The position numbers and the translations under genes were made by a program. Positions 4,748-63,909 of a stretch of DNA of 64,000 nucleotides are shown here, piece after piece. The DNA lies in contig JBFWNW010000002.1 of the NCBI GenBank assembly GCA_050250855.1, forward strand, positions 32,001-96,000. The letters run 5' to 3'. The notes below the pieces were generated by a model that saw nothing but the letters and a program-made list of their open reading frames with translations, was not told where the DNA came from and made no database searches. Position 1 is the first letter of the stretch. Each line of letters opens with the position of its first letter. This DNA comes from Candidatus Babeliales bacterium (GTDB lineage: Bacteria; Babelota; Babeliae; Babelales; JACPOV01).

Positions 4748-4877
4748 AAGATCCTTTTTATTGTTATACATGAGCACTAGTAAAAGTAATTATTTTGAAC
4801 TAGAGTAAAATAAATTTCACAAAAGGATACGGAATGAGCCAGAAAAGTCAAATTTAAACATCAAAAAATATAAAAAT

Positions 4878-47597: not shown

Positions 47598-48443
47598 TTA
47601 TGGATTTCCATATTTTTTGAATATTTTTTCAACAAAAATACGGTTTGATTCTTTAGAAAGCTTTACTGCATGGTTATAATCAGCATTAAGTTTAAACGTT
47701 TTTTCTTCATTGCAACGATCAAAACCATAGCCTTCCCATAATTTTTCCCAGTTTTCTTTATACTCCAAACAACTGAGAATGGTAGGCAATGCTCCTTCAA
47801 GCCAAGCATCATTTTTTCTATAGATTTCGCACAGTTCAATAAAATCATCTTTATATACCGCTGGTATATATGCTATATCTGCATATGCATGACAGATGCA
47901 ATTATCTCCCCAGTTAGCTTTTAACATTTCCTTATAGCAATCAGGCGTTTCTTTATAAGCATTCTTTAGTGCTTCATAACCAAATTTTGTTGGCCACCAA
48001 CAATTAGTAATTGCTCTAATCCCTTTATTTAAATTAACAGCTTCTCCAATATCATATCTATGCCAATTAACGAATACATGATTAGCGGCCCATATTTTTG
48101 ATAGATCAAAACGATTATAACGCCAAACATTCATTAAGCAATCATCGTGACAGAACAAATACCCTTTATAATCAGGAAATCTTTGCATAGCATCACTAAG
48201 AGCATAATAACTAAATGCCCCTCGCTCCTCTTCAATCGCATAAACGTCAGGACACTCACTTGGTCCATAAAAAATTACTTTAGAAAAATAAGGCTCATAG
48301 ATCTTTTTTAAAAATGAGATTGCTTCATAATGAGCAAAATTAAAATTTATAATTAAAAGAACATCATCAAACATTTTTCCATAATTAGAAAAAATAATAG
48401 TAAAGACAAAAAAATAAACAATTCTTTTACTAAAAAAAACCAT
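47598..48443 (-). CDS. STELLO/DUF288-like GT-A domain protein with signal peptide
   Basis: LLIINFN, YKGYLFCHDDCLMNVW, ADIAYIP, WLEGALPT, HAVKLS. Confidence 0.65.
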   Translation of the reverse strand: MVFFSKRIVYFFVFTIIFSNYGKMFDDVLLIINFNFAHYEAISFLKKIYEPYFSKVIFYGPSECPDVYAIEEERGAFSYYALSDAMQRFPDYKGYLFCHDDCLMNVWRYNRFDLSKIWAANHVFVNWHRYDIGEAVNLNKGIRAITNCWWPTKFGYEALKNAYKETPDCYKEMLKANWGDNCICHAYADIAYIPAVYKDDFIELCEIYRKNDAWLEGALPTILSCLEYKENWEKLWEGYGFDRCNEEKTFKLNADYNHAVKLSKESNRIFVEKIFKKYGNP

Positions 48444-48455
48444 AGGTTTCCCTTT

Positions 48456-49535
48456 CTAGTGTGTTATAGTTTTATAATAGCTATAAGCCTTTTCAAGCAT
48501 AGCTATTTGCTCCGGTGTAAAAATTAACTCTCTTTTGTAATCAGGAATAGTTAATGATAACACGGTATCAATAAAATATTCTGTAGAAAATAGAAATGCC
48601 ATTTCGCTCTTCAAGTAAGCTTTAATATTTTTAATATATTGATCATATTCTTCTTTTTTCATCTTTTTCATAAATTTATATAATTCTCGATTATTTTTAA
48701 ATTTACGGCGATCAATAAAGCAACTTGGCCATACACAATCGGTAATATTTTCTGCACCCCAATAGACTGGTACACAGCCAGAAACTAAACAATCAAAAAT
48801 TTTTTCTGTAATATAGCCAGGAACATTATTACAATTTTCATAACAAATGCAAAATTTATAATTTTTTAATACTGGGCGTTTATGAGGAACCTTGCCTTTA
48901 AATGTCTTAAATTGCGATGCAGGCCAACCACCTTCACCATAAAAATCAAATTTTTTTCTCCTTTTACTTTTTTTCTCAAAAAAATTAATTACTTCTCTTC
49001 GTGCAGAATATAACTGGCCAACTCCTCCTGACATCTTATAGCTTACTATCATAGTGCACAATTTCTTTTGATCAAAAGAAGGAATATCTTTTTCTATTTC
49101 TAATGATGGTTGAGGATAAAAAAACTTTAAAGCTTTATCGTTATCAATCATTGCATCAGATAAATATAAAATTTTTTTACAATAAGGCCGATAATCAAAA
49201 CTATACATTCCTGGCGCAATCAGAGGCGGTTCAAAAACTCCAAAAATAGATTTTTCTTGCAATGTTTTCGGCAAAAGATCGACATTAGGAGTATTTAAAA
49301 AAAAAGCCCCTATACAATTATCATCATTATAATCACTAAGCTCTAAACAGCTTGGATGATAACCAAGATTTTTTATGGCTTGTGCAAAATCGTAAAACAT
49401 CTTCCATCCATTATCGCGACAAGGGTAATTAGGAATATTTAATATTTCATCAGACAAATTAAAATAAAATACTTTTTCTGTTCCAACTACAGTAAAAAAA
49501 GCTAAAAAAACTAATACTCTTATCTTATTATTCAT
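48456..49535 (-). CDS. GT10 alpha-1,3/4-fucosyltransferase-like with signal peptide
   Basis: YKFCICYEN..GYITEKIFDCLVSGCVPVYWGA (GT10 motif). Confidence 0.88.
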   Translation of the reverse strand: MNNKIRVLVFLAFFTVVGTEKVFYFNLSDEILNIPNYPCRDNGWKMFYDFAQAIKNLGYHPSCLELSDYNDDNCIGAFFLNTPNVDLLPKTLQEKSIFGVFEPPLIAPGMYSFDYRPYCKKILYLSDAMIDNDKALKFFYPQPSLEIEKDIPSFDQKKLCTMIVSYKMSGGVGQLYSARREVINFFEKKSKRRKKFDFYGEGGWPASQFKTFKGKVPHKRPVLKNYKFCICYENCNNVPGYITEKIFDCLVSGCVPVYWGAENITDCVWPSCFIDRRKFKNNRELYKFMKKMKKEEYDQYIKNIKAYLKSEMAFLFSTEYFIDTVLSLTIPDYKRELIFTPEQIAMLEKAYSYYKTITH

Positions 49536-49542
49536 ATATTTT

Positions 49543-50391
49543 CTACGCCTTCAAGTAACTATGTTGTAAATGGGGATTAAAAAAAAGAGCCGCGAGCGCA
49601 ACATTTGATACGCCATGGATAAAATGATCACACTTAGAAAGCAACTGTGTTTCAATCAAAACCTGTTCTCCCATTAATGCTCTATTTTTTACTTGTTGGT
49701 TCCATATATGTAATCCTGTATCATCAAGAGATCGATAGGAGTCATAATAGATCACCTTACCAGGTAATTTCTTTTTTAATTCATCAAGAACTCGTTGATC
49801 ATCAGTCGCTACCAAAAATTGTGCTCCCTTATGCTTAGAAGCCTCTTCTATATACTGCTTAAGAGGAATTCGCGGTGCTTCATTATGGTCTGTTCTGCGT
49901 ACATGAATACCGACCGTCTTTTTACCTTGCATATTTTTGTGATAAAAATCATCAATTTTTGCACTAATTTGAGGTTTTATATGTATATATTTTTCTATAT
50001 ATGAGTTAATAAAAGATCTATATTCATAAGAAAAATTTTGTTCATATCCAATATATCCGCAAGGTATAGCTTGACCATCTGGCGTAACATAATCTTCATG
50101 TATTACATCACCAGAATTATACTGAGCTTCTGAGACGGGATAAAAATAATATTCCCAAATATTATCACTTCCATTATAAGTTCCTGATACTTTATAATAA
50201 GCAGGAGCACGGTTCCAATGTACCACAAGATCTAGCCCTTTTTCTTCACACCATATAAGATGACTGACTACACCAAATATATTAGAAAAAAGACCTGCCC
50301 AGCGACCACCTAAAACATAATGATCTTTTGAAAAAGAGAAAAAACTAAAAAATATAATCGACATACAAAGAAAACAAGAATAATTTTTCAT
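49543..50391 (-). CDS. NodZ/GT23-like fucosyltransferase with signal peptide
   Basis: AGLFS, NIWEYYF, GIHVRRTD, LVATDD, LLSKCDHFIHGVSNV. Confidence 0.85.
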   Translation of the reverse strand: MKNYSCFLCMSIIFFSFFSFSKDHYVLGGRWAGLFSNIFGVVSHLIWCEEKGLDLVVHWNRAPAYYKVSGTYNGSDNIWEYYFYPVSEAQYNSGDVIHEDYVTPDGQAIPCGYIGYEQNFSYEYRSFINSYIEKYIHIKPQISAKIDDFYHKNMQGKKTVGIHVRRTDHNEAPRIPLKQYIEEASKHKGAQFLVATDDQRVLDELKKKLPGKVIYYDSYRSLDDTGLHIWNQQVKNRALMGEQVLIETQLLSKCDHFIHGVSNVALAALFFNPHLQHSYLKA

Positions 50392-50426
50392 TAACTATTT
50401 CCTCAACAAAAATCTGTTTTATAGCT

Positions 50427-51311
50427 CTAAGAAATAACCAAGCCTACCTTAAAATCTTCCGTCATTTTTAAATATATGCTTTTTAATAATGGATTAAAAA
50501 ACAATGCACCCAAGGAAACATTTGATACAGAGTGAATAAAACAATCGCACAAAGAAAGTAGCTTTGATTCTATAAGCACTTGCTCTCCCATAAGAGCTTT
50601 ATTATCTACTTGTGGGTTCCATATATGCAATCCTTTATTATTTGAAGAACGATACGCATCATAATAAATAACGTTTCCCTTTAGTTTTTGTTTTAAAATA
50701 TCTAACACTGATTGATCATCGGTCGCTACTAAAAACTGCACATCTTTAAAAGAATTTGCCACCTGAATATAAGCATTAAGAGGAATGCGTGGCGATTCAT
50801 AATGATCTGTTCTTCTAACGTGAATTCCTATTGTTGCTTTACCTTCCATATTTTTTTTATAAAAATCATTCATTTTTTCAAGAATAGAAGGCTTTATGTG
50901 AATATATCTTTGAATATAGGAGTTAATAAATGATCTATATTCATAAGAAAGATTTTTTTCATATAAATAATATAAACATTCAATAGCTTCTCCATCTGGT
51001 GGCGTATAATCTGCGTGCAATTCATCACCAAGTTGATAGTGAGCTTCTGAAACAGGATAAAAATAATATTCCCAAATATTATCACTGCCATTATAACCAT
51101 CACTCATCTTGTAAAAAGAAGGCTCATCTTTCCAATAAACTACTAAGTCCATTCCCTGTTTTTCACACCAAATGAGATGATTAATGACCCCAAGGATATT
51201 TGAAAATAACCCTGTCTGCCGACCTGTCAAAACATAATAATTATTACTTAAACAAGAAAATGATTGTCCTAAGAAAAAAACTCCTATAATAATTTTTACA
51301 AAAAACCGCAT
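50427..51311 (-). CDS. NodZ/GT23-like fucosyltransferase with signal peptide, tandem paralog
   Basis: TGLFS, NIWEYYF, GIHVRRTD, LVATDD, LLSLCDCFIHSVSNV. Confidence 0.85.
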   Translation of the reverse strand: MRFFVKIIIGVFFLGQSFSCLSNNYYVLTGRQTGLFSNILGVINHLIWCEKQGMDLVVYWKDEPSFYKMSDGYNGSDNIWEYYFYPVSEAHYQLGDELHADYTPPDGEAIECLYYLYEKNLSYEYRSFINSYIQRYIHIKPSILEKMNDFYKKNMEGKATIGIHVRRTDHYESPRIPLNAYIQVANSFKDVQFLVATDDQSVLDILKQKLKGNVIYYDAYRSSNNKGLHIWNPQVDNKALMGEQVLIESKLLSLCDCFIHSVSNVSLGALFFNPLLKSIYLKMTEDFKVGLVIS

Positions 51312-51314
51312 AAC

Positions 51315-52385
51315 TTATCCTATTTTTTTAAACAAAAAAGAACAATAATCCTTTGCCTTTTCAAGGTTAGTTATTTGTTCCGGGTTAAAAATAAGCTCTT
51401 TTTTATAATCAGGAACTGTTAATGACAAAACTAAATCAATAAAATATTCCATAGAAAATAAAAACGCCATTTCACTCTTTAAATATGCCTTGATATTTTC
51501 AATATATTGATCGTATTCCTCTTTTTTCATATGCTTAATGAAATTGTACAACTCTTGATTATCCTTAAATTTACGCCGATCAATAAAGCAATTTGGCCAT
51601 ACATAATCGGTAATATTTTCTGCACCCCAATAAATAGGGACACATCCTGCAACTAAACAATCAAAAATTTTTTCTGTAACATATCCTGGCGCATTGTTGC
51701 TATTTTCGTAACATATACAAAACTTGTAATTTTTGAGCACTGGTCTTTTGTGAGAAACCTTCCCTTTATAGGTTTTAAATGACGCTGGCCATTCAATACC
51801 ATATACATCAAGCTCTTGGACTCTTTGAGGATCTGAATCAAAAAAATTAACTACACTAAGACGTTGGGTAAATAATTCTCCAGGCCTTTCTATAAATTTA
51901 TAGGTTGCAATAAGTGCACATAGTTTTTTTTCATGAAAATCTGGAATATCCTCTTCAATCTCCAGTGAAGGTTGAGGATAAAAAAATTTAAATCTCGTAT
52001 TGTTATCAATCTTATTATCCAAGAGATATAAAGTTCTAAAAGGATAGAAGGTTGTTGTATAATAACCAGGAGCAATAATAGGCGGCTCCCATAATGAGAA
52101 TAAACATTTTTCAGGAATTAGATTCGGTGAAATATAATTGGGCAAATTAATAAAAAAAGCACCTGCATAATCTTTTGATCCCAGATAATCAAATTCTTTT
52201 ACCTCATAACCAAGTTTTTTTGCCGCCTGAGCTAATTCATAAAAAACTCTATAAGCAGCATCTCTTTGCGGATAAGAAGTATCAGTAAAAGTAACTTCTG
52301 GAAGATTTATATAAAAAATCCTTTGATCAGCTTCACTCAAAAAAACCTGTAATAAAAAAGTAATTCCTAATAAATAGCGCACCAT
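51315..52385 (-). CDS. GT10 alpha-1,3/4-fucosyltransferase-like with signal peptide
   Basis: YKFCICYEN..GYVTEKIFDCLVAGCVPIYWGA. Confidence 0.88.
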   Translation of the reverse strand: MVRYLLGITFLLQVFLSEADQRIFYINLPEVTFTDTSYPQRDAAYRVFYELAQAAKKLGYEVKEFDYLGSKDYAGAFFINLPNYISPNLIPEKCLFSLWEPPIIAPGYYTTTFYPFRTLYLLDNKIDNNTRFKFFYPQPSLEIEEDIPDFHEKKLCALIATYKFIERPGELFTQRLSVVNFFDSDPQRVQELDVYGIEWPASFKTYKGKVSHKRPVLKNYKFCICYENSNNAPGYVTEKIFDCLVAGCVPIYWGAENITDYVWPNCFIDRRKFKDNQELYNFIKHMKKEEYDQYIENIKAYLKSEMAFLFSMEYFIDLVLSLTVPDYKKELIFNPEQITNLEKAKDYCSFLFKKIG

Positions 52386-53857
52386 TATACTATGCCAAAA
52401 TTATACAGCTTTCTCTTTTGATATAGCTGCTGATCATACCTAAAATATTGTGCATTACGCACATATAAAGGATCGTTATGATCAGAACCATCTAAAGGGT
52501 AATTATTCTTAATAAGCTGCTCATAGAATATTTTTTCTTTACCGAGTGAACGGGCTACTTCAGCCAGTTCATTATCGCAGTAATATGATTTATATTCTGG
52601 ATAATAAATATATCCAAACCGTTTATAATACATTCTGCCTATAATAGGATAAATAACATAGTCTTTAGGATCTCTGCCATCTGAAAAATTAAGGATACCG
52701 TCAAAATCAGGAAAATGTTTCAACATTTGACGCACTATAACTACATCATAGTTTTTTACGATAGGTTCAAGATCATCACTTACTACTAAAATAACGTCAA
52801 ACTTATCAATAAAATCATCGATATCTTTATTGTATGCTTCAATTTTTGAACTACTATTGCCAAAGCGATAAGAAAGATTTGGCAAACTATCAAGAATACT
52901 TATTACCTTGGCATTATTCATAGTTGGATCATCTTGATCGCACGTAATTAAAAAATGGTAGGGAATGGTTCCTGATAACATCTCATAGTACTTTTTTAAA
53001 TATTGGAAAAATTGTACCGGACGATAACGCGTTGGAATTTTTATAAGTAGACGAACTAACTGCTCTCTTGACTGCTTGCAAGCATGAAATGCTATAGTAT
53101 CTATATCTTTTTTATATGCACTATAGGGCCTTGGAGGTAAACAATCAACATAAGTACCTTCTTCAATACGGCCCACATCATAGCGCCAATTAATTTTATC
53201 TATTCTCGTGCGTGGTGAAACTACATCAGTTTTGCCCAATCGTATACAGCGACTCTCATAACCATCCCACGCAAGTACCGTTTTATATAACATTTTTTGA
53301 TCAGTGGTCCATCCAATTGCAGTATCATGCCATTCTTTAATCTTTTGAGGGATATCCTCTTTTGTGAAAATCTTAAAAATTTCTGCAAAAATTTTACCTT
53401 TACCTGCAACATAGCACATAGGAATTTCTTTGAATTGTCGTTCAAACTCTTCGCTATCTCGATAAACAACAAAAACATCATCAGCTAAATCTTTAATACG
53501 CTCGGTAAAATAATCTCGAGAAAGAGGTAATAAGTCTATATCAGAAACTATGCAACAATCATTGGGAAATAACAAGGGCAAAAATAAGCGAATACATTGA
53601 GCATATAATGACGTTGGTATGCCTGGAATAGGCTCAAAGCGAATAATGTCACCTAATGATTCATCTATTTCTACACTTTTATCTGCAATTAAAGCTAACG
53701 TTGGCCTTATACCAACTACTTCTTTCCACATCTTGGCAACCAGCGGCCAGTATTCTATATAATTGGGATTTGCATCAGTAGACAAAATAACACGATCAAG
53801 CGTTAAAGCTTCTGCTTTAAAAATACATAAAAAAAGTACTACGTATATTCTTCTCAT
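52385..53857 (-). CDS. Two-domain putative glycosyltransferase with signal peptide
   Basis: N-domain IRLF..VSDIDLLP (DxD), PMCY, WTTDQ; C-domain LLIKIPTR.RP, VSDDL, YYCDNE; leader MRRIYVVLFLCIFKAEA. Confidence 0.7.
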   Translation of the reverse strand: MRRIYVVLFLCIFKAEALTLDRVILSTDANPNYIEYWPLVAKMWKEVVGIRPTLALIADKSVEIDESLGDIIRFEPIPGIPTSLYAQCIRLFLPLLFPNDCCIVSDIDLLPLSRDYFTERIKDLADDVFVVYRDSEEFERQFKEIPMCYVAGKGKIFAEIFKIFTKEDIPQKIKEWHDTAIGWTTDQKMLYKTVLAWDGYESRCIRLGKTDVVSPRTRIDKINWRYDVGRIEEGTYVDCLPPRPYSAYKKDIDTIAFHACKQSREQLVRLLIKIPTRYRPVQFFQYLKKYYEMLSGTIPYHFLITCDQDDPTMNNAKVISILDSLPNLSYRFGNSSSKIEAYNKDIDDFIDKFDVILVVSDDLEPIVKNYDVVIVRQMLKHFPDFDGILNFSDGRDPKDYVIYPIIGRMYYKRFGYIYYPEYKSYYCDNELAEVARSLGKEKIFYEQLIKNNYPLDGSDHNDPLYVRNAQYFRYDQQLYQKRKLYNFGIV

Positions 53858-53867
53858 AGCTATCTCT

Positions 53868-55229
53868 TTATTCAGTACATGAAATTAAACAAATATCTTC
53901 TTTGTCTTTGGATAAATCATAAGATTGTATAGTTGAAAGTGATAATACAGTATTTCTTTTTACTATCATGCCACATGAATCTGCAGGAGACATAAATTTT
54001 ACTTGTGAAATAGCTAAACCATCCCATAGATATGAAGCATTTTGCTGAGAAGAAAAATCTTTTTTGGATAGTATACAGAAATTTGATTTTGTATCATGCA
54101 TAGCTTCTGCACAAATTTCTCTATTTTTTAATGTTTCTAAAGCTTTAACGTCTGTAATAACACAATAATAATCATAATTAACATCTTTTAACCAAAAATC
54201 AGGTGATGCATCCTGCGATGGGTTAATAACAAACGTATAATGAGAGTAAAGAGAAGCTAATTGTTCATAATCATTTTTATGAGATAAGTCTCCACAGCAA
54301 ATAACGTTTAGATTTTCATTTTTATATAAACCTTTAAATGCGCTTAATGTCTCTGCAAGTGTATTTGGATCATTAGCATAGATCAAAAAAGGAATAGATT
54401 TTTTTTGATACGATTCTCGATAAGGTCTTTGTTCAAGGGGTTTGTATGCCGACCGGCTGCTAATAACCTTTCTTAAAAATTGTTGCTTTTCCCAGTTAGT
54501 TGCACCATCTGCAATTGGATTATCTTCATTGTAGCGATATAAAATGTTTGGGTTAAATTTGTAATGATTAATTGCCATCTCTATAATTGGATACACCCAA
54601 GAAACGTCCTGTGCCATAGAGAAAAACATACCTTCATGTAGTAAATCTTTAAGAGCAACTTCTCTAAAAAGCCATGCATACATGCAACGAGGAGGACTAA
54701 AATACCAATTTTGACGAATAAGATTACGCTGCTTTACCATAGGAGGAATATCACCAGACCATGGTGCATAACCGTTTCTTGTTCCCCAAAAATTACCGTA
54801 GGTAAACCAAATAGATTCATCACTAAACTGTTCATTGATTGATGATAAAACATCTTTTGTAGTAAAGGTATCATCGCCATCCAAAATTACTGCAATTTCA
54901 TGAGGTTTGCAGAATTTATAAAAGGCATACACAATATTTCTGAGCGCAAGACCACGAATTTCATTTTTAATAAGAGTAACGCGATGATGTATATCATACT
55001 GATCAATAAAAGCCTTTGCATTTGCATAAGTATTATCAGGAGAACAATCATCTATATAAACAACGCGAAATTTTTCATAATCCTGCATAAGAACTGATGC
55101 TAAATTTTCATTGCATACATCTTGATTTTTATAAGAAGGAATAATAACAACAATATCATGCTGATATGCTGCTGCTATAGTATATACTCCCCCTACAAAA
55201 ATTAATCCAAAAAATAGTTTTAAATTCAT
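53868..55229 (-). CDS. GT2 glycosyltransferase with signal peptide and decayed second domain
   Basis: VIIPSYKN, IDDCSPDNT, LDGDD; start 55229 (ATGA overlap, AAGGA SD). Confidence 0.85.
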   Translation of the reverse strand: MNLKLFFGLIFVGGVYTIAAAYQHDIVVIIPSYKNQDVCNENLASVLMQDYEKFRVVYIDDCSPDNTYANAKAFIDQYDIHHRVTLIKNEIRGLALRNIVYAFYKFCKPHEIAVILDGDDTFTTKDVLSSINEQFSDESIWFTYGNFWGTRNGYAPWSGDIPPMVKQRNLIRQNWYFSPPRCMYAWLFREVALKDLLHEGMFFSMAQDVSWVYPIIEMAINHYKFNPNILYRYNEDNPIADGATNWEKQQFLRKVISSRSAYKPLEQRPYRESYQKKSIPFLIYANDPNTLAETLSAFKGLYKNENLNVICCGDLSHKNDYEQLASLYSHYTFVINPSQDASPDFWLKDVNYDYYCVITDVKALETLKNREICAEAMHDTKSNFCILSKKDFSSQQNASYLWDGLAISQVKFMSPADSCGMIVKRNTVLSLSTIQSYDLSKDKEDICLISCTE

Positions 55230-56167
55230 ACACACTTCCTTATTTGCTTTAAGTACCATTGAAAATTTTTAATATCATTTCTTGAACTATAAATATGGGT
55301 ATTTTCATTAACAAAATCACCTTGCCAGGTAATATAAAAAGGAATTGAAACCTGATTATAATCCAAAAGCATAGGAACTTTCTGCGTATAGTCTTGTTTA
55401 TGAATGCAAAGATCTTTTAAATAGGCTAAAATTCCCAACAACGCTTGTTCATAGCGAGCACAACCAAACCCTTCAGGAGCTGTCCCATCATCAATAAAAT
55501 TTCTTAAATCTTTGCTCATGTTATATAAGGGAGTAATAAAAAGATCTTGTGCTTTTTGCGCTACACCAATAACACCAGCCATAACTGCCTCTTGTGAAAG
55601 TATCCATTGATACTCGGGAGCATCAAGATTAAATTTATTTCTTACATAACGCGTTGTCTGCCATGCAATGGGATGTCTAAATTTACCATTATCACGCTCA
55701 TTACCAATAGTAGCTAAAAAATATCCTTTGTGCTGTATATATTCAAATAAATCATCAAGAGGACGCAATACCGTTGAGCCTGCATCTATCCATAGAACAT
55801 AGGGAAATCTTTCTAAAGCCTGTTTTATAACAACAGGTTTCCATGCAAACCATCCAGGAACCATTCTTCCTGCCTTATTAATTACTACCTGCCTGAGTAA
55901 GTCAGGATGCGTTAATTCAACATTATAAACTGCTATATTTTGAATAGTTTTAAGAAAAGAAATTTGTTGTTCTTCAAGGCCTAAATCAAAAACAGCAATT
56001 TCGTTAATATTGTCATAATTTGTAGCATGTAATGATCCAATTAAATTTAAAAGCTTAGAAAAATATTTTGCATCACATGCAGTACAATAATACTGAGGAA
56101 TAGCTTGTAGAAAAGCCATTCCTCCTAATAAAGCTAACCATACATAAAGAGTCTTTCTTTTTATCAT
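55226..56167 (-). CDS. DUF1647-like putative GT-A glycosyltransferase with signal peptide
   Basis: LLNLIGSLH, VFDLGL, FAWKPVVI, VLWIDAG, RYEQA. Confidence 0.65.
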   Translation of the reverse strand: MIKRKTLYVWLALLGGMAFLQAIPQYYCTACDAKYFSKLLNLIGSLHATNYDNINEIAVFDLGLEEQQISFLKTIQNIAVYNVELTHPDLLRQVVINKAGRMVPGWFAWKPVVIKQALERFPYVLWIDAGSTVLRPLDDLFEYIQHKGYFLATIGNERDNGKFRHPIAWQTTRYVRNKFNLDAPEYQWILSQEAVMAGVIGVAQKAQDLFITPLYNMSKDLRNFIDDGTAPEGFGCARYEQALLGILAYLKDLCIHKQDYTQKVPMLLDYNQVSIPFYITWQGDFVNENTHIYSSRNDIKNFQWYLKQIRKCV

Positions 56168-56173
56168 TACTCT

Positions 56174-56764
56174 TTACTCAAAAAATGTACGAATATCTAT
56201 AGTATCACTGACAATCGTTGTCTGAATTGCATAACGCAAATAAGTATAACGATATTTGAAAGTTGCAAGAACTGGTTCATACCCATATGCAGGTTCTTCT
56301 GTATCATGTACAACAAAAATATCTGCATTATGGCGCAAACGCTCAATATCAACTCTTCGTCTATCACCAGGACGATGATCAACAAAAACCACTGACCAAT
56401 AGCGATCTGTTCCTACAGCATCCCATAATTCTGGCTTTGGATTCTTTGCCCAATCATCTTCAAAAACAGGAATATAGCTAAAATGATGCCAATCTCGTGC
56501 CAAATCTATAAATAAAGAAAGCCATCTTTTATCAGTATCTGTTGTAAGAAGAAACCGTTTTGTTACTGAACAAACAGCATGCAAAAGTGGCGTACTATAA
56601 TCCCCAGATCCAAGTTCTAAAATAGGCCCTTTAGTATTTGCCACGACCGTCATAAGAGGAGCCATGTGAGTCCCATAATTGCCATCACCAAGACGTCTAT
56701 TCGCTTCTATAAACTGGCCATTTAAACTCAATAAAATTATGAATAAAAATAATTTTTTTTGCAT
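56174..56764 (-). CDS. SAM-dependent methyltransferase-like protein with signal peptide
   Basis: ILELGSGDYST, VFVDH, VVHDT; start 56764 (AAGAGG SD), leader MQKKLFLFIILLSL. Confidence 0.7.
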   Translation of the reverse strand: MQKKLFLFIILLSLNGQFIEANRRLGDGNYGTHMAPLMTVVANTKGPILELGSGDYSTPLLHAVCSVTKRFLLTTDTDKRWLSLFIDLARDWHHFSYIPVFEDDWAKNPKPELWDAVGTDRYWSVVFVDHRPGDRRRVDIERLRHNADIFVVHDTEEPAYGYEPVLATFKYRYTYLRYAIQTTIVSDTIDIRTFFE

Positions 56765-56777
56765 ACTATTCCCTCTT

Positions 56778-57698
56778 TTAAAAAGACCAATCAATATCCC
56801 AAATATCTAAATCTTTAAAGTAACCTTTTCCATACTGTTCAAACCATGCCAATACCTGTTTTTTCCTCCATAAAATTGGTTTATCCCATACAGAAAAATC
56901 AAGAAATTCATAACCTTTAAACCAATATACTGGAGATGGTTGCGTTCTTAATCCTCGCTCATCTTTTGAAGGGAAATAACGCACATTAATTTCCTGGCAA
57001 GATTTTTCTGGTTGCCTGATACGCTCAAGACAGCGATACCACGCTTGTTTTTCTAATAAGTTTTGCCAATTAACAAACTGAAAATGCAAAAGGCCATATT
57101 CATAACCCTGTAAACGGAATCTTTTTCCTTGCACGGGAAAACTACGATTATGCAAAAAGTATGAAGGAAAATTTGAAACACCATCATCGCAAAAAATAAC
57201 AGGTTTATAATCATTGGTCCATTTTGAGTCATCAAAACGATAGCGATCTATTGTTCTCCAGAGTTGAATCCAACAAACCTCCATACTTTCTCCTGGCTGC
57301 AAAGAAAGAATAAGTTTGCGTAAAAAATTATTATCTGAACAGTTTGCAGTAAACATTTCATCCGCATCAATTAAAACAAAATGAGTACCACCAAGTGCTC
57401 TGCCAGCATCTAATAATTTCTGCTTGTTATCACTTTCTTTGCCAACTTGCCAGCCAGATTGTTCATTGCGCAAAATGACAAATTCTTTGCCAAGCTTTTT
57501 ACAACATGATTCAACCAGAATTTTAGTGCTATCTTCAGAATTATCATCAAGCGTAACAAATGCATCAACATAAAAAGACAATGCTTGTAAACATTGCTCA
57601 ATACATTGCTCTTCATTTCTTACTTGCATAAGACTTACTATTTTAGGTGAAGCAGTTAAAGATAAAAAAGTCCCTAACAATAATAATAATTTAAACAT
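56778..57698 (-). CDS. GT2-like glycosyltransferase with signal peptide
   Basis: VRNEE, LDDNSED, LIDADE, LLHF; start 57698 (AAGGAG SD). Confidence 0.85.
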   Translation of the reverse strand: MFKLLLLLGTFLSLTASPKIVSLMQVRNEEQCIEQCLQALSFYVDAFVTLDDNSEDSTKILVESCCKKLGKEFVILRNEQSGWQVGKESDNKQKLLDAGRALGGTHFVLIDADEMFTANCSDNNFLRKLILSLQPGESMEVCWIQLWRTIDRYRFDDSKWTNDYKPVIFCDDGVSNFPSYFLHNRSFPVQGKRFRLQGYEYGLLHFQFVNWQNLLEKQAWYRCLERIRQPEKSCQEINVRYFPSKDERGLRTQPSPVYWFKGYEFLDFSVWDKPILWRKKQVLAWFEQYGKGYFKDLDIWDIDWSF

Positions 57699-57711
57699 AT
57701 TCAGCACTCCT

Positions 57712-58560
57712 TTACTGAACAAATGCTTCTTTTTTTAACCAGCTTCCTGCCCAATGGTGCACCGCATATGATTCAGGTTTTTGCCATTCTGAGGCAGGGG
57801 TTCCTCGTTGTTCATAACCACATGGGTAAAAGTAACTAGCGGGAAAAGCTACGATACGAAATTCTTGCATCATAGAGGGAACATATTTTAAAAAAAGTTT
57901 AGTAAAAAACAAAGGACCCGTTCTTAGTATAATCTGAATCTCATGAGATGAATTACGCAACTCTTCAATACATTTTTGCAATAATGGATGATGAGGAATA
58001 GACGCTATTAAAGCATTGTTAAGCTGGACCATATTGGTATCCAAAGGTTGAATACCGGTGTAAAAATCATAAATACATAAAGAATTCATTGATTTTAAAC
58101 ATTCAAAATCGGTATCAATGTAAATACCCCCAAATTGCTCTAAAATTTCATAACGCCAAATATCAGACTTTTCACCATAATTCTTTGAAGCATCAAATAG
58201 ATCTTTATTACGCCACGCAAATGATGCTACATCTGCATCTGTCCATAATTTATATTCCCAGCCAGGATTATGCTTCAACCAGCTTTCTTGATAAGCGCGG
58301 TATTTTTCAGGAAAAGGACTACCAAGCCAAATTTGATGTATTATTTTAGGGATACGAACAGACGTCGGCACAATTCTTGCTGGTGAAAATAAGTTATATA
58401 AACGCTCAAAAAAGTTTTTAAGCATCATATTATTATTCTTTTCAAGAATATGTTTATATGAATCAGCTTGCATTGATGTATTAAAATCTACCCATATAAA
58501 ATTTTCCTGTGCACAAACTAAAGAACTAAAAAGAAACGTTATGCTTAATAGTTTTTTCAT
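57712..58560 (-). CDS. GT32 (Och1/Sur1-like, DxD) glycosyltransferase with signal peptide
   Basis: IPKIIHQIW, SDIWRYEIL..GGIYIDTD, TGP, HHWAGSW. Confidence 0.9.
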   Translation of the reverse strand: MKKLLSITFLFSSLVCAQENFIWVDFNTSMQADSYKHILEKNNNMMLKNFFERLYNLFSPARIVPTSVRIPKIIHQIWLGSPFPEKYRAYQESWLKHNPGWEYKLWTDADVASFAWRNKDLFDASKNYGEKSDIWRYEILEQFGGIYIDTDFECLKSMNSLCIYDFYTGIQPLDTNMVQLNNALIASIPHHPLLQKCIEELRNSSHEIQIILRTGPLFFTKLFLKYVPSMMQEFRIVAFPASYFYPCGYEQRGTPASEWQKPESYAVHHWAGSWLKKEAFVQ

Positions 58561-58562
58561 AA

Positions 58563-59594
58563 TTATACCCTTGCTTGTTTATAAGATTTTTCTGGTACAA
58601 CCTTGTGCGCTAAATACCAAAAATATGCTTCCTTTAAACCATTTTTCAATGAAGTTTTTGCTGTCCAACCAAGCTGTGAAATTTTATCAACATTTAATAC
58701 TTTTCTTGGCGTGCCATCTAAAGTATTGATATTAAAAAGGATTTCTCCTGCATACCCAACGATCTCTTTAATTAAAGAAGCTAGTTCGGCAATTGTTATA
58801 TCTTTACCGGTCCCAATATTAATATGACCCGATTCTTCATAACTATTCATTAAAAATAAGCATGCTTGCGCTAAATCATCGACGTATAAAAATTCTCGCA
58901 ACGCTTTACCCGTTCCCCATAAAGAAACTGACGGTTTATTTTCTTCTTTTGCTGCATGAATTTTTGCAATAAGTGCAGGAATAACGTGCGATGATTCAAA
59001 GTCAAAATTATCATGAGGACCATAAAGATTTGTTGGCATACAAGAAATAAATTTTGTACCATATTGCCTGTTATAGCTTTTGCATAAAAGTATGCCGGCA
59101 ATTTTTGCAAGCGCATACGGCTCATTTGTTTTTTCAAGTTCATCGGTCATTAAATACTCTTCTTGTATTGGTTGAGGACAATTACGAGGATAAATGCAAG
59201 AAGAACCTAAAAATAAGAGCTTTTTAACGCCATTGGTATACGATGCATGAATAATATTTGCTTCAATCATAAGATTGTCATAAATAAATGAGGCTGGAAA
59301 ATCATTATTTGCTTTAATGCCGCCAACTTTTGCAGCAGCCAAAAACACATATTCCGGTTTTTCTTGGTTGAAAAAATCATGTACCGCTGCTTGGTTGCGC
59401 AAATCAAGTTCTGCAAAACTACGCGTTATAAGGTTAGTATATCCTTCAGCTTGCAACGCTCGCATTAAAGCAGAGCCAACCAACCCCTGACCTGCTATAT
59501 AAATTTTTGCCTGCTTGTCCATATGTGCTTCACTAACACCAGTAAAAAGATTAAAAATCAAGCCTATACTCATTATCTTTGTTACGTAGTTCAT
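58563..59594 (-). CDS. fcl: GDP-L-fucose synthase with apparent signal peptide
   Basis: [42 protein letters not shown]; start 59594 has AGGAG SD with 6-nt spacer. Confidence 0.95.
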
Positions 59595-60783
59595 GAGATT
59601 CTCCTGATAATTTTTGAGCTGCAATGTAGATATTTGAGCCGGTTGCCTCACTTTTTAATTCCCATGCAATTTGTTCTAAATCTGCATCCATCATTAGACA
59701 AACTAAATCTTTAAAGGTTGTTTTTGGCTCCCAACCAAGAAGTTTTTTTGCTTTGCTAGGATCACCCAGTAAAATTTCAACTTCAGTCGGTCTGAAATAA
59801 CGAGGATCAACCGCTATCAACAGCTCACCAGTTTTTTTATTGTATCCTTTTTCCTCAGCACCTATACCGCGCCATTCTACCGTAATACCAACACGTTCAA
59901 ATGCTAATTCAACAAACTCTCTTACGGTATGCGTTTGTCCGGTTGCAACAACCCAATCTTCAGGCTTTTCATACTGTAAAATAAGCCACATTGCTTCTAC
60001 ATATTCTTTGGCATAGCCCCAATCTCGTTTTGCATCAAGATTACCTAAATAAATAGGATCTTTTTTACCTAAAGAAATTGCGGCTACCGCACGCGTAATT
60101 TTTCTGGTTACAAAGGTTTCGCCACGTAAAGGAGATTCATGATTAAATAAAATACCATTTGCAGCAAACATGCCGTAGGCTTCTCGATAGTTTACCGTTA
60201 TCCAATAGGCATAAAGTTTTGCAACACCATAGGGAGAACGTGGATAAAAAGGGGTCGTTTCTTTTTGAGGAATTTCTTGTACGTTGCCATACATTTCTGA
60301 AGTTGATGCTTGGTAAAATTTCGTTGTTTTATCAAATCCGGTTACACGCAATGCTTCTAATAAACGCAAGGTACCTATGCCATCAGCATTTGCTGTATAT
60401 TCTGGCACTTCAAAAGAAACTTTTACATGAGATTGTGCTGCAAGATTATAAATTTCATCAGGCTTAATTTCTTGTATCAAACGAATAAGATTGGTAGAAT
60501 CGGTCATATCACCAAAGTGTAAAAAGAAATTTCCTTTCTTTTTATTATGAGGATCACGGTATAAAGGATCTATGCGATGCGTATTAAACATTGATGAACG
60601 ACGTTTAATGCCATGAACTTCATACCCTTTACCCAGTAAAAATTCAGCCAAGTAGGCCCCATCTTGACCAGTTATACCGGTAATTAAGGCAACTTTTTTC
60701 TTCATACTCTGCTCTCCTGCAAAAAAAGTACTGAATCCTAAGCAAGCTACTGCAACAAAAATTTTTTTATAAGAGTGCTTCAT
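59551..60783 (-). CDS. gmd: GDP-mannose 4,6-dehydratase with apparent signal peptide (second possible start at 60705)
   Basis: [50 protein letters not shown]. Confidence 0.97.
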
Positions 60784-60798
60784 ATCCTATTTCCTTTT

Positions 60799-61827
60799 TT
60801 ATGTATAATGATGGCTATTTTTTTCCCGTAATTGATGCAAAATATGTTTTACTTTATCTGTCTGATCTCGCTTCGCTATTAAAAGAACATCATCTGTTTC
60901 TACAACACATAGATCTTCAACGCCTATAAGTGCTACGAGCTTTTTTGGCACCTGAACAATATTATTAGCTGCGTGCAATTCAATAACTTCTGTTTGCTGT
61001 TGGCTATGCTTTTTGTGCAAAGAAAGAAATATTTCTAAGTTGCCAACATCTGACCATGTAAAAGAGCAGGGCTGTACATACACGGCATTACTTTTTTCTA
61101 ATACCGCATAATCAATAGAAATATTTTCGGCATCTTTGTAATCTGCTTTATGTTCAAAAAAATCACATACCACCTTATATAGCTGTTGGGCATGACGATT
61201 GTATTCTTCTATAAAAACAGAACTTTTGGCACAAAAAATACCTATATTCCATAACATGGTATCCATGGTACTATATACATCCGCCAATTGCGCTGAAGGT
61301 TTTTCATGAAAACGAGAAACTTTTACAACATCATTTTTTTGCGCTGCCATTTCTATGTAGCCATAGTTTGTTGCGGGAAAATCAGGACGAATTCCTAACA
61401 ATGTTATGGCATCATGAGCTTGCGAAAATTCTAACGCATTATTTAAATGTTTGGCAAATTGGTCATCTTCTACAATAAAAGCATCAGCAGGTAAAAAAGC
61501 TATAATTGCTGAAGGGTCTTTTTGTTGAATATAAAGCGTAGCCAAAAGTAATGCTGGCGCTGTATTGCGGCCAATTGGTTCAGACAAAATGCCGCCTATA
61601 GAATCTCCCAAAAGACTTTTAATAGAATCAACCTGCTGCTCAGTTGTCATAATAAAAATATTATGTTTTTCAACAATTAAAGAAGCACGCATAACAGTAC
61701 GCTCAAGCAAAGAATTTTGATCATCAAGAGAGAGCAGCTGCTTTGGCTTTTTCTCTCTACTCAAAGGCCATAAACGCTCACCTTTGCCTCCAGCTAAAAT
61801 AACAATATAGCGTGATGTTATATCCAT
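60799..61827 (-). CDS. manC: Mannose-1-phosphate guanylyltransferase, no signal peptide
   Basis: ILAGGKGERLWPLSR..PKQ, EPIGRNTA, YGYI, EKP, SIDYAVLE, WSDVG. Confidence 0.95.
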   Translation of the reverse strand: MDITSRYIVILAGGKGERLWPLSREKKPKQLLSLDDQNSLLERTVMRASLIVEKHNIFIMTTEQQVDSIKSLLGDSIGGILSEPIGRNTAPALLLATLYIQQKDPSAIIAFLPADAFIVEDDQFAKHLNNALEFSQAHDAITLLGIRPDFPATNYGYIEMAAQKNDVVKVSRFHEKPSAQLADVYSTMDTMLWNIGIFCAKSSVFIEEYNRHAQQLYKVVCDFFEHKADYKDAENISIDYAVLEKSNAVYVQPCSFTWSDVGNLEIFLSLHKKHSQQQTEVIELHAANNIVQVPKKLVALIGVEDLCVVETDDVLLIAKRDQTDKVKHILHQLREKNSHHYT

Positions 61828-61833
61828 AACTAT

Positions 61834-62547
61834 TTATTTTTTTCTTCGTTCAAAAAACAAACGACAAAATGTTTTAGCTGCTTCTTTCATAATTGCTACT
61901 GAAAGCTTTGAATCGCCATGAATTCTATTACGTGCATGAATCGGAATTTCTGTTATACGCAAACCATCCTCTTTAAAGCGATACAGTGATTCAATGCAGA
62001 AAGAAAATCCTTTTGAACTTACTTTTTTATAGACATGAGGCTTTAATTTTTGTACAGAATATAAACGGTAAGCACCGGTACAATCGTACGGCATACCAAG
62101 GCCTCGTTTAATTAAATTTCGCCAAAAGTAAGTAAATGGTAAACGAATTCTTCCCCAACCGCTCATGCCACCGCCATGAATATAGCGTGAACCAATAACG
62201 ACATCATGAACATCTCTTTTTTCAAAAAGAGCAGGAATATAACGCGGATCGTGCGTAAGATCTGCATCCATCGTAATTAAAAATTTATAATTATGTTTTT
62301 GCGCATATTCAAATGCCTGCACGTGAGCCGTTCCTAAACCAAGCTTTGCAGGGCGATGCATAACATGCACAGAAGGATCTTTTTTACTTAAATCATCAAG
62401 AACTTTTCCGGTGCCATCTGGAGAATTATCATCACAAAAAAGAATATCAACATCTTCTTTGTGCTTCTTTATTTCTTCATACAAAATTAAAACATTGTCA
62501 CGTTCATTATAGGTGGGAACAAAAACTAAAACTTCATTTTTTTGCAT
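61834..62547 (-). CDS. Polyprenol-phosphate mannosyltransferase (Ppm1/DPM1-like GT2)
   Basis: PTYNERDN, DDNSPDGT, GLGTAH, MDADLTHDP, GSRYI.GG, D.TG.YR. Confidence 0.88.
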   Translation of the reverse strand: MQKNEVLVFVPTYNERDNVLILYEEIKKHKEDVDILFCDDNSPDGTGKVLDDLSKKDPSVHVMHRPAKLGLGTAHVQAFEYAQKHNYKFLITMDADLTHDPRYIPALFEKRDVHDVVIGSRYIHGGGMSGWGRIRLPFTYFWRNLIKRGLGMPYDCTGAYRLYSVQKLKPHVYKKVSSKGFSFCIESLYRFKEDGLRITEIPIHARNRIHGDSKLSVAIMKEAAKTFCRLFFERRKK

Positions 62548-62556
62548 AGTATAAAC

Positions 62557-63909
62557 CTAGTGAATCAATTGGTACGTAATAATAGTATTTTCTTTCTTTG
62601 CACAACGATATGCAACAACCATACCAAAAGCAGAAAAAAGGATAAAGAAGTATTCAAACATCATCCGATAGCGCGCACATCCGTCATGTCCTGTTATAAA
62701 GGAAAAATAAAAAATTGAAATAATGACAAAGCTAACTATAAAATAATATTTTTTATGCCATAGAGCATAAAGGCCGATCATGATAAAAAATAGTTGCAAT
62801 ACCATCCAGAGTAATTGTAAAAATGCAATAATATGTATTAAACGCGATGAAGTGCCATCAACTACATAATGGTAAAAACGATTATATAAAGAGCCTGACT
62901 TTGAAAAAAATGATGTTTCCGTACCTTTTAACGATGGATTTACTAAAAATTTAAGTTGATTCGTATACAAAGCACCTACCGTCTTTATCATGTTATGCAA
63001 CCAAATACGTACAACTAATACTGGTTTTTCATAAAAATAAGAATGCATCAATGCTTTTGGTTTATTCCAACGCGTATGATCATTATGATGTTTACCATCC
63101 ATTAACGTACCGACCTGAACTAATCCTTCTGCCCATGAGATACCTTGGTCATGTGCTATAACTTTTGCCAAAAAATAAAAATAAATATTTTCATGCATTA
63201 AAGGGGCAATTGTCATAGAACCAAATTGATACTTATTGTGTAGCATATAACCAGCAACAGGAATATAAAAACAAAACAAGCACAGTAAAATGGCATTCAA
63301 TACTTTTTGTCTCTGTAAATAAGCATGTAGCCCGACAAAAAAGATTACTATGAAAATATAAAAAAGCGCTACCGGTTTTACCGCAACTGAACAACCATAC
63401 AATAAGCCTGCTAGGGCTAAAGAAGATAAGCTAGACGTTTTAAAATACGTACATAAACGCTCAAGAGAAGCTATCAAGAAAAATGCTAAAAGCACTTCTG
63501 TGAGCATAAATTGACTGTATATTAAAAAACCAAGATTAAAAGATCCTAACAAAACAGTTACTTGTGCAACATGTTCATCAAAAAGCATGTATGCTATGCG
63601 ATAGAGCAACAATAACGCTAAAAGGCTTAGCAAGATTTGTGCAATAATGACCCATGTGTGATGAAAACCAAATAACTTATAAATACTACCTAGAAAAAAT
63701 GGGTACCCTAATGTTTGAACGGGAATAATGGATCCTCGTTGAGGATCCATTAATTGATTATCTGTTGCAAAATAGTTGCCTATTGCCACATATCCTGATG
63801 AATCAAGATCACAATGAGCTTCATAGGCAGGATTTATCCTATACAAACTGTAGGATAATAAACAAAAAATAACTATCGAACAGAGTAAAACTATTTTTGT
63901 ACTATTCAT
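62557..63909 (-). CDS. ArnT/PMT-like GT-C membrane glycosyltransferase
   Basis: DS..Y in first loop, GYPFFL, LTE, VKP, many TMs, C-terminal ARYR. Confidence 0.75.
   Translation of the reverse strand: MNSTKIVLLCSIVIFCLLSYSLYRINPAYEAHCDLDSSGYVAIGNYFATDNQLMDPQRGSIIPVQTLGYPFFLGSIYKLFGFHHTWVIIAQILLSLLALLLLYRIAYMLFDEHVAQVTVLLGSFNLGFLIYSQFMLTEVLLAFFLIASLERLCTYFKTSSLSSLALAGLLYGCSVAVKPVALFYIFIVIFFVGLHAYLQRQKVLNAILLCLFCFYIPVAGYMLHNKYQFGSMTIAPLMHENIYFYFLAKVIAHDQGISWAEGLVQVGTLMDGKHHNDHTRWNKPKALMHSYFYEKPVLVVRIWLHNMIKTVGALYTNQLKFLVNPSLKGTETSFFSKSGSLYNRFYHYVVDGTSSRLIHIIAFLQLLWMVLQLFFIMIGLYALWHKKYYFIVSFVIISIFYFSFITGHDGCARYRMMFEYFFILFSAFGMVVAYRCAKKENTIITYQLIH

Follow-up and report, generated by a model that had tools for sequence, protein, structure and literature searches.

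The closest described counterparts of the genes considered here are gmd and fcl (wcaG) of E. coli (PDB 1DB3, 1BSV), which encode the same enzymes, acting in the same reaction order, and share the gene adjacency with manC. Enzymes of the E. coli-type pathway are cytoplasmic and have the Rossmann fold right at their N-terminus, whereas the pair encoded by the Babeliales bacterium under study, a parasite of protist-infecting type, carries signal-peptide-like (SP-like) extensions of about 25 residues. To our knowledge, nucleotide-sugar synthesis in bacteria is held to be strictly cytoplasmic. Leloir transferases that are secreted and use donors of the host cytosol are known, e.g. Legionella Lgt/SetA, clostridial TcdA/TcdB and NleB/SseK, and all secreted glycosyltransferase effectors known to us depend on donors that the host has already made. 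The gene next to fcl likewise matches the TcdA_TcdB family, but those systems export the transferase only, whereas here the donor-making enzymes also carry putative export signals.

A second point of comparison is provided by viruses. Passages of a review on chloroviruses and giant viruses (PMC5408694) describe GMD and GMER enzymes, as in PBCV-1, which are encoded by the parasite along with glycosyltransferases and, in the cytoplasm of the host, convert the host's GDP-mannose to GDP-fucose. To the extent covered by these passages, virus and bacterium are both intracellular parasites with their own GDP-fucose enzymes and glycosyltransferases; however, the viral enzymes, which lack signal peptides, are synthesised within the host cytosol, whereas the bacterium would have to export its enzymes across the envelope. 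For the phylum itself, passages of two Dependentiae papers report that 44% of the CDS of Chromulinavorax encode a signal peptide (PMC6561590), and propose that SP-bearing proteins of Babela reach the amoeba cytoplasm with the aid of a type II secretion system (T2SS; PMC4378268). The secretome passages of both papers cover ankyrins, proteases, nucleases and proteins of the ubiquitin system, and do not mention the terms fucos-, mannose, GDP or glycosyltransferases. The openly accessible literature that we searched yielded no report of an exported Gmd or Fcl, nor of fucosylation in Dependentiae.

Anatomy of gmd and fcl

The features of the locus are compiled in Table 1; positions refer to the window, i.e. 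the whole stretch of 64,000 nt that was analysed. Throughout, "SP-like" denotes the outcome of a heuristic based on hydrophobicity and charge, complemented by reading of the sequences, and not the call of a trained predictor. The false-positive rate of this heuristic was gauged at internal Met positions in the ORFs of this genome, 173 of 4396 of which (3.9%) passed.

Table 1. Features of the gmd-fcl locus and of the surrounding same-strand gene run.
Feature	Position	Strand	Basis and remarks
GT2 (Dpm1/ArnC-like, no SP) and multi-pass PMT_2 glycosyltransferase	61834-63909	-	Pfam; upstream in same-strand run
manC-like GDP-mannose pyrophosphorylase, no extension	60799-61827	-	Pfam NTP_transferase and ManC_GMP_beta-helix
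AAGGA	60792-60796	-	8-nt spacer to outer gmd ATG (60783)
gmd long form, 410 aa	59551-60783	-	ORF, Pfam PF16363 and PDB 7kf3_A; SP-like extension ahead of complete GDP-mannose 4,6-dehydratase
gmd N-terminal extension, residues 1-26	60706-60783	-	n-region MKHSYKK, 15-residue h-region, then GEQS; SP heuristic passed
AGGAG	60714-60718	-	8-nt spacer to inner gmd ATG (60705-60703)
AGGAG	59601-59605	-	6 nt ahead of fcl ATG 59594; within gmd 3' end
fcl long form, 343 aa	58563-59594	-	Pfam Epimerase and PDB 1bsv_A; SP-like extension ahead of complete GDP-L-fucose synthase
fcl N-terminal extension, residues 1-24	59523-59594	-	MNYVTK, 14-residue h-region, SEA-H; SP heuristic passed
GT32/TcdA-like, SP-like	57712-58560	-	Pfam; TcdA_TcdB catalytic domain family, E 4e-11
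GT2_4, SP-like	56778-57698	-	Pfam
Two unknown genes, SP-like	listed between GT2_4 and GT2	-	N-termini
GT2, SP-like	53868-55259	-	Pfam
Unknown gene, SP-like	52385-53857	-	N-terminus
GT10 fucosyltransferases (two), SP-like	51315-52385; 48456-49535	-	Pfam
NodZ/FUT8-like (two), SP-like	50427-51311; 49543-50391	-	Pfam
STELLO-like, SP-like	47598-48443	-	Pfam

Behind their extensions, both ORFs encode intact enzymes. Gmd matched PF16363 (GDP_Man_Dehyd) over profile positions 1-330 of 332 (residues 33-362; E 4.4e-157) and aligned with PDB 7kf3_A (E 1e-159), residue 2 of which pairs with residue 29 of the query, as well as with 1db3 (E 1e-153). The Gly-rich NADP loop and the T/S-x-E and Y-x-x-x-K motifs were identical or conservatively exchanged in the 7kf3_A alignment. 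Fcl matched Pfam Epimerase from residue 33 onwards (E 3e-64) and PDB 1bsv_A with E 1.3e-105, residues 3-315 of the chain pairing with residues 27-330 of the query. The S-x-C, Y-x-x-x-K and H motifs are retained in this alignment, including the stretch NLYGPHDNF. When the G-x-x-G-x-x-G motif is compared, the cofactor loop of Fcl (IAGQGLVG) is one residue shorter than the AGHxGLVG present in 57 of 59 relatives. In Gmd, the T/S-x-E and Y-x-x-x-K motifs are the catalytic ones, and the three Fcl motifs are catalytic as well.

The first-pass annotation had described both genes as carrying signal peptides in front of an intact canonical Met, and its sequences and coordinates proved exact to the base. 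Its claim that SD-like sequences precede both gmd starts was also borne out (AAGGA-N8 at 60783 and AGGAG-N8 at 60705), as were its statements on fcl, namely AGGAG-N6 at the long start, the overlap of 44 nt with gmd (59551-59594) and an inner Met without a good SD: no SD-like motif was found upstream of the inner fcl ATG (59522). A short motif for the 3' end of the 16S rRNA, sought in order to read the anti-SD, gave no usable match, and the frequencies of the SD-like motifs at called starts and at internal ATGs of this genome were compared instead. AGGAG is located 4-13 nt upstream of 11.0% of the 1090 called starts, but of only 0.27% of 4786 internal ATGs; for AAGGA the corresponding values are 26.8% and 0.77%. 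The public gene call of gmd (P0151, 384 aa) begins at the inner ATG and in this way conceals the putative signal.

The two extensions differ at the predicted cleavage position. In Fcl, S-E-A followed by H conforms to a canonical SPase I-type site, with S at position -3 and A at position -1. In Gmd, F-F-A followed by G places F at -3, which is non-canonical, and a KKK motif follows soon downstream; both features weigh against an export reading for this protein, and cleavage of its extension is uncertain. The closest Gmd relatives exhibit sites of the L-x-A or I-x-A type. The Fcl extension would be a cleaved Sec signal peptide, and that of Gmd may be either a signal peptide or an uncleaved membrane anchor.

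SP-like extensions across the Babeliales

Next, the extensions were compared across 110 loci of the same phylum (Babeliales), comprising 109 Gmd copies from 98 genomes out of 171 Gmd matches overall, and 60 Fcl copies, only those adjoining a gmd being sampled. The first-pass annotation had stated that Gmd and Fcl usually begin at the Rossmann fold, and this agrees with the data: of the 120 best database matches of Gmd, 112 have the GxxGQDG motif no more than 15 residues from the N-terminus, and the structures align from chain residue 2 or 3 with query residue 29 (Gmd) or 27 (Fcl). The ortholog alignment that it had suggested as a check for a conserved hydrophobic extension revealed in-frame SP-like extensions in 61/109 Gmd copies (60/98 genomes) and 29/60 Fcl copies. 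Their sequences are mutually unrelated among relatives, and it is the SP character that is retained. Off-frame controls were SP-like in 6 of 338 cases (4/218 for Gmd, 2/120 for Fcl), and none of 75 non-Babeliales Gmd loci analyzed by the same pipeline was SP-like.

In 55 of 63 SP-type Gmd copies there is no inner ATG at the ancestral start. Therefore, the long form must be translated in most SP-type copies. Many of the long starts among the relatives have an AAGGA or AGGAG of their own at a distance of 4-10 nt, and many relatives possess A-x-A-type sites immediately ahead of the mature enzyme. A FastTree phylogeny of 104 Gmd sequences with 6 outgroups places the query in a clade of 55 copies with an SH-like support of 96; 51 members of this clade, the query among them, are SP-type, and these stem from seven families. 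Where a genome has two Gmd copies at the sampled loci, one is SP-type and the other SP-less in 10 of 11 cases. Two single ORFs are fusions: SP-Gmd-Fcl in G200 (743 aa, with a lipobox-like LTVSC) and SP-GT2-Gmd in G180 (680 aa). Taken together, these comparisons argue strongly for extensions that are genuine, translated and under selection across the phylum.

Several further comparisons were less informative or negative. Among representatives clustered at 50% identity, 26 of the 150 listed that were inspected have N-terminal offsets, mostly eukaryote-type N-tails, fusions and odd assemblies, and only P0120 among these 26 was SP-like; this set is uninformative because Gmd is too conserved. By genome, both Gmd and Fcl carry a signal in 33 cases, Gmd only in 8, neither in 19 and Fcl only in none. 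When phylogenetic independence was demanded, co-occurrence of the two signals was reduced to 3 supported pairs (sign-test median p 0.5), an underpowered comparison of few independent events. Exported copies are not depleted of cysteine (Cys in exported copies versus the rest: 2.08 vs 2.49 for Gmd, 6.27 vs 5.35 for Fcl), so adaptation to an oxidising periplasm is unsupported. Full GT10 ORFs were SP-like in 37 of 44 cases, but this did not track the Gmd signal: 6 of 10 GT10 ORFs were SP-like where the only sampled Gmd is SP-less, and most of the others appeared so by eye. Since GT10 signals do not follow Gmd, co-localised synthesis and use of the donor does not hold as a general principle.

The two SD-like motifs of gmd raise the idea that translation is initiated at both 60783 and 60705, providing an exported isoform and a cytoplasmic one that would serve the manC product. 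This is compatible with export. AGGAG-N8, so rare at internal ATGs, speaks for such dual initiation, as do the adjacent manC, the public gene call at the inner ATG and the finding of only one Gmd match (E<=1e-80) in the query genome (G000). Moreover, the nearest clade retains the inner Met in all of its members but one (8 of 9: G000, G001, G002 and P0152-P0156, G004 being the exception), while the residues flanking it vary. However, an SD-like motif is missing from the inner ATG of G001 and G002, the closest genomes of which the DNA was compared, only 2 of the 8 SP-type Gmd copies that keep this ATG have one, and most single-copy SP-type genomes possess no inner ATG at all. Fcl would also be needed in the cytoplasm, and yet none of its 29 retained inner ATGs, that of the query included, is preceded by an SD-like motif. 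Thus, of the suggestion that gmd has two starts, the part concerning this genome stands as a possibility, whereas a general use of two starts does not; on balance, we consider dual initiation weakly supported and somewhat unlikely.

Signal type, secretion genes and neighbourhood

Both Gmd and Fcl show the features of Sec-type signals, i.e. a positive n-region and an uncharged h-region of ~10-15 residues within the first ~30 residues. Neither n-region contains RR as expected for a Tat signal, and TatC was not found in the genome, which is 95% complete. Lipoprotein signals were also considered, using the rule of a lipobox that ends in Cys after an uncharged h-region. Cys14 of Gmd, following VAVA, is located too early and has K6 and K7 within the ten preceding residues, and the Fcl extension contains no Cys; both candidates were rejected. 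The genome encodes the Sec machinery (SecY, E 5.5e-99) and one SPase I (Peptidase_S26, E 9.6e-35) as well as two secretins and two T2SS-type ATPases (T2SSE).

SP-like N-termini are common in this genome: of the 1090 ORFs with a length of 100 aa or more, 483 (about 44%) have one, which matches the published figures for the phylum, and 380 of the 483 have a single hydrophobic segment. Among the latter, of which 141 were scanned with Pfam, are a dNK, a Ham1 ITPase, a PRTase, SET and GNAT proteins and SAM methyltransferases. These are cytosol-type enzymes whose cofactors exist in no compartment other than a cytosol, so that, if they are exported, the host cytosol is the indicated destination.

The neighbourhood of gmd and fcl is divided in this respect. 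Downstream of fcl, each of the 11 genes of the strand run (47598-58560, minus strand) is SP-like, whereas a classical glycosyltransferase cluster on the plus strand is not. Upstream, the manC stop codon is located 15 nt ahead of the gmd start, and the N-terminus of the manC-like protein (MDITSRYIVILAGGKG) is not SP-like. Because manC lacks a signal, an exported Gmd would be separated from the product of the adjacent gene, which counts against export.

Where GDP-fucose may be made

In the reading we favor, the long forms of Gmd and Fcl would be translated and would exit the cytoplasm via Sec, accompanied by the glycosyltransferases encoded downstream in this run, fucosyltransferase-like ones included. 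Onward passage could perhaps occur through a type II-like system, and "outside" may accordingly mean the periplasm or the host cytosol. There, GDP-mannose, most likely that of the host, would be converted to GDP-fucose with NADP(H) that would necessarily be host-derived, and the product would supply the co-exported GT10 and GT23-like transferases. Judging from the sequences, we consider it rather probable that Gmd, Fcl and the downstream glycosyltransferases are exported and that GDP-fucose synthesis takes place beyond the cytoplasm of the bacterium. The first-pass annotation had proposed such extracytoplasmic synthesis: the extensions, at the frequencies given above and with the inner ATG so often missing, fit this proposal, while the compartment and the source of GDP-mannose are what we infer beyond them. 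A Sec substrate travels as an unfolded chain, so NADP+ would have to be acquired afterwards, which may be raised as an objection to export.

A more specific version can be formulated. With Gmd, Fcl and eukaryote-style fucosyltransferases exported, Babeliales may synthesise GDP-fucose at the expense of host GDP-mannose and NADPH, either within the host cytosol or in a periplasm accessible to it, and may fucosylate targets of the host or of the bacterial surface. This proposal is tentative, and we rate it just short of even.

Alternatively, Gmd and Fcl could stay in the periplasm, soluble or anchored, and glycosylate the cell's own envelope or exported proteins, with host GDP-mannose and NADPH diffusing in through the outer membrane. 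The topology predicted from the positive n-regions and the lack of a canonical cleavage site in Gmd would suit this arrangement, as would the SP-Gmd-Fcl fusion of G200 with its lipobox-like motif. The PMT_2 protein, which is of the protein-mannosyltransferase type, and the Dpm1-like GT2 of the strand run likewise represent a periplasmic glycosylation theme. On the other hand, we know of no bacterium with a periplasmic pool of a nucleotide sugar or of NADPH, many of the co-exported enzymes require ATP, SAM, PRPP or acetyl-CoA, and the cysteine content of exported copies is not lowered. Confinement to the periplasm therefore appears unlikely to us.

It is also conceivable that the extensions are not used in this genome, i.e. 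that translation starts at the inner Met codons, that an ordinary cytoplasmic manC-gmd-fcl route operates and that the upstream frames are relics. The 384-aa public call, a strong SD ahead of the inner ATG of gmd and the signal-less manC next to it would be in line with this. However, in fcl it is the long start, not the inner ATG, that is preceded by an SD (AGGAG-N6), the frames are open and SP-like in relatives despite unrelated sequences (off-frame ~2%), and the Gmd of G004, a member of the same clade, lacks the inner Met, which makes this explanation quite improbable. Finally, an N-out/C-in tether holding the enzymes at the cytoplasmic face of the inner membrane, where membrane-associated glycan assembly might gain from donor synthesis close by, is highly improbable in view of the K/R residues in the n-regions (MKHSYKK and MNYVTK; MKK... 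in relatives), which favor N-in, and of the A-x-A-type sites directly ahead of the mature enzyme in many relatives.

If export of Gmd and Fcl with their transferases is true, these parasites would make a donor sugar in a host compartment or in a host-fed periplasm, which would enable them to introduce a glycan perhaps absent from the host's own repertoire. The locus would then be the bacterial analogue of the glycosylation toolkit of giant viruses, and the first secreted module for donor synthesis.

N-terminal extensions of Gmd and Fcl

The minus strand of the window carries, from 63909 to 47598, a single tight run of 17 genes that includes gmd (GDP-mannose 4,6-dehydratase) and fcl (GDP-L-fucose synthase). 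Both proteins possess about 26 extra N-terminal residues ahead of where Pfam and PDB matches start, each extension pairing a basic n-region with a hydrophobic core that bears no charge, followed by an S-E-A site in Fcl and a non-canonical F-F-A site in Gmd. The first-pass annotation had claimed signal peptides preceding an intact canonical Met in both genes. Upon re-reading, the gmd and fcl sequences agreed exactly with its text and its four statements on starts and SD sequences were all correct. At its C-terminus, Gmd continues for some 35 residues past the end of the solved enzymes, and the last 44 nt of the tail coding region double, in another frame, as coding region of the fcl signal peptide. 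The Gly-rich cofactor loop of Fcl (residues 33-40) reads IAGQGLVG and is one residue shorter, which may affect cofactor binding; 57 of 59 relatives have an AGHxGLVG loop and only one relative, G052, shares the short form.

Features of the window and of related loci
Feature	Position	Strand	Remark
Multi-pass PMT_2 glycosyltransferase		-	first in run; Pfam
Dpm1/ArnC-like GT2		-	second in run; Pfam
manC-like GDP-mannose pyrophosphorylase		-	third in run, before gmd; Pfam
gmd	59551-60783	-	after manC
Gmd C-terminal tail	59551-59660	-	
fcl	58563-59594	-	after gmd
Fcl cofactor loop	~59480-59500	-	
Retained Fcl Met	59520-59522		
Eleven glycosyltransferase-like/unknown genes	downstream of fcl, down to 47598	-	Pfam
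GT10 fucosyltransferases	48456-49535, 51315-52385	-	
STELLO-like homologues	16496-17332, 47598-48443	-	third copy at L125:3041-4108
Deoxynucleoside kinase	4010-4771	-	Pfam dNK, E 1.4e-44
Thioredoxin	24577-24960	+	signal peptide
Thioredoxin-reductase-thioredoxin fusion	25067-26503	+	
SP-like Ham1 ITPase, phosphoribosyltransferase, two flavin amine oxidases, SET-domain protein, GNAT, LigD 3'-phosphoesterase domain protein	G000:C1 (L114, L123, L124, L125, L130)		query genome
Two secretin genes	G000:C2:124339-129486		query genome, ~28 kb past window end
SP-Gmd-Fcl fusion	L032, G200:C3:21942-25973		other Babeliales genome
SP-GT2-Gmd fusion	L045, G180:C2:17527-21564		other Babeliales genome

Orthologs were checked for a conserved hydrophobic extension. 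Of 261 genomes from the phylum, 142 have a Gmd match at E<=1e-80, and upstream frames were read in 110 loci (50 from searches, 60 picked down the remaining match list), leaving out nine duplicates as well as HSPs starting after query residue 12, below 45% identity or shorter than 90 residues. By our hydrophobicity and charge heuristic, the in-frame extension was signal-peptide-like (SP-like) in 61 of 109 Gmd copies (60 of 98 genomes) and 29 of 60 Fcl copies, compared with 4/218 and 2/120 in the off-frame controls; the identical pipeline detected none in 75 non-Babeliales Gmd loci. Six further Gmd and four further Fcl extensions were hydrophobic by eye, albeit below a threshold; including such additions, 63/104 Gmd and 33/59 Fcl full-length copies were classified as SP-type. 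The extensions are alike in character only, without common sequence. Among the best 120 protein matches to Gmd, 112 begin at most 15 residues from the Gly loop and six are clearly SP-like, these being the nearest relatives of the query.

Translation starts and history of the signal

SD sequences are in use in the query genome (1.2 Mb, 36% G+C): 4-13 nt upstream, AGGA precedes 36.6% of 1090 called starts vs 2.0% of 4786 internal ATGs, and AGGAG 11.0% vs 0.27%. Judged by these statistics, three sites resemble genuine starts, namely the long one of fcl (AGGAG-N6) and, in gmd, both the long one (AAGGA-N8) and the inner one (AGGAG-N8); the inner fcl ATG does not. In the chance control, the heuristic rated the sequence after 173 of 4396 internal Mets (3.9%) as SP-like. 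The ancestral-start ATG is absent in 55 of 63 SP-type Gmd copies, and many long starts are preceded by AAGGA or AGGAG of their own; as far as these sequences indicate, the long form is the real form. Dual use of both gmd starts, also raised by the first-pass annotation, appears rather unlikely. Its SD-like motif at the inner ATG stands, the inner Met is retained in 8/9 members of the nearest clade despite varying flanking residues, and the query genome has a single gmd; however, no SD-like motif stands at this position in relatives G001 and G002, and the Met is absent from most SP-type Gmd copies.

The ancestral Met is retained in 29/33 SP-type Fcl copies vs only 8/63 SP-type Gmd copies. None of these 29 Fcl Mets is preceded by an SD-like motif, compared with 6/24 true starts of SP-less Fcl. 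Many Fcl copies have an A-x-A-type site whose end falls 0-1 residue ahead of the retained Met; mature Fcl would then begin almost exactly at the canonical N-terminus.

In a FastTree phylogeny of 104 Gmd copies and six outgroups, 51 SP-type copies from seven families fall into one 55-member clade (SH-like support 96), which also contains the query subclade. Overall, at least 10 changes of SP state are required, four of which are forced by well-supported branches, and therefore the signal is old and was gained or lost several times. Among sampled loci, 10 of 11 two-copy genomes combine one SP-type with one SP-less Gmd. Two single-ORF fusions, SP-Gmd-Fcl (743 aa, lipobox-like LTVSC in the signal) and SP-GT2-Gmd (680 aa), physically tie Gmd to putatively exported partners.

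Secretome context and export machinery

Of 1090 ORFs with 100 aa or more, 483 were assigned SP-like N-termini, 380 of them with a single hydrophobic segment, agreeing with the 44% that PMC6561590 reports for Chromulinavorax. Inside the window, SP-like genes separate cleanly from the others: all genes downstream of fcl in the run are SP-like, among them two GT10 and two NodZ/FUT8-like fucosyltransferase candidates, and the plus-strand polysaccharide cluster, manC and housekeeping ORFs recognised by eye are not. A Pfam scan covering 141 of the 380 single-segment ORFs returned expected periplasmic proteins (BamA, a PBP, MreC, DegP-like, Amidase_3), effector-type repeats, enzymes with cytosol-only substrates (Ham1 ITPase, a PRTase, SET, GNAT, SAM methyltransferases) and a few false positives, e.g. 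a PadR regulator.

GT10 genes are present in 58/261 Babeliales genomes vs 0/14 control genomes, and nearly all products (37/44 by heuristic) carry an SP-like or type-II-anchor-like N-terminus, as do eukaryotic Golgi FucTs. Three homologues of STELLO-like (plant Golgi-type) glycosyltransferases likewise have SP-like N-termini. In the deoxynucleoside kinase, the SP-like N-terminus MKKILLLFFFVHSAAC lies immediately ahead of the P-loop; it is a further ATP-dependent enzyme of cytosol type that appears to be exported. The signal-peptide thioredoxin adjoins the thioredoxin-reductase-thioredoxin fusion, which has an N-terminal hydrophobic segment. This arrangement suggests that a reductase dependent on NADPH operates outside the cytoplasm.

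Genes for SecY, one SPase I, two secretins and two T2SS-type ATPases are present in the query genome; a search of it for TatC came back empty. The secretin frames encode 883 and 855 aa, with 4 kb between them, and, together with the ATPases encoded elsewhere, are candidates for the outer-membrane export step. For Babela, PMC4378268 proposes delivery of SP-bearing proteins into the amoeba cytoplasm, together with a type II system.

Proposed site of GDP-fucose synthesis

Most likely, Gmd and Fcl are exported and GDP-fucose is made outside the cytoplasm, whereby we infer export, cleavage, compartment and acceptor alike. The long forms would be synthesised, be taken up by the Sec pathway and exit the cytoplasm alongside the fucosyltransferases. 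For Gmd bound NADP+ is sufficient, Fcl consumes NADPH and both need GDP-mannose. None of these compounds is known to occur in a bacterial periplasm, and the working compartment would therefore be the host cytosol or a host-fed periplasm. The proposed pathway resembles that of chloroviruses, whose own GMD and GMER work in the host cytoplasm according to PMC5408694.

Several points argue against export. As the adjacent manC is cytoplasmic, the operon's GDP-mannose has no obvious route to an exported Gmd; this GDP-mannose may rather be used by the Dpm1-like GT2 and the upstream PMT_2 gene. Cysteine depletion, sought in the exported Gmd and Fcl copies, was not detected, and GT10 signals did not track Gmd signals across genomes. 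Signals on Gmd and Fcl show a striking numerical association (both, 33; Gmd only, 8; neither, 19; Fcl only, 0), which rests on too few independent events for a test.

As enzymes, Gmd and Fcl are ordinary, and an SP-rich secretome has already been published for the phylum; our literature search found no paper combining export signals on both donor-synthesis enzymes. What appears to be new is the predicted export signal on both GDP-fucose donor enzymes, conserved in over half of the sampled Babeliales with these enzymes.
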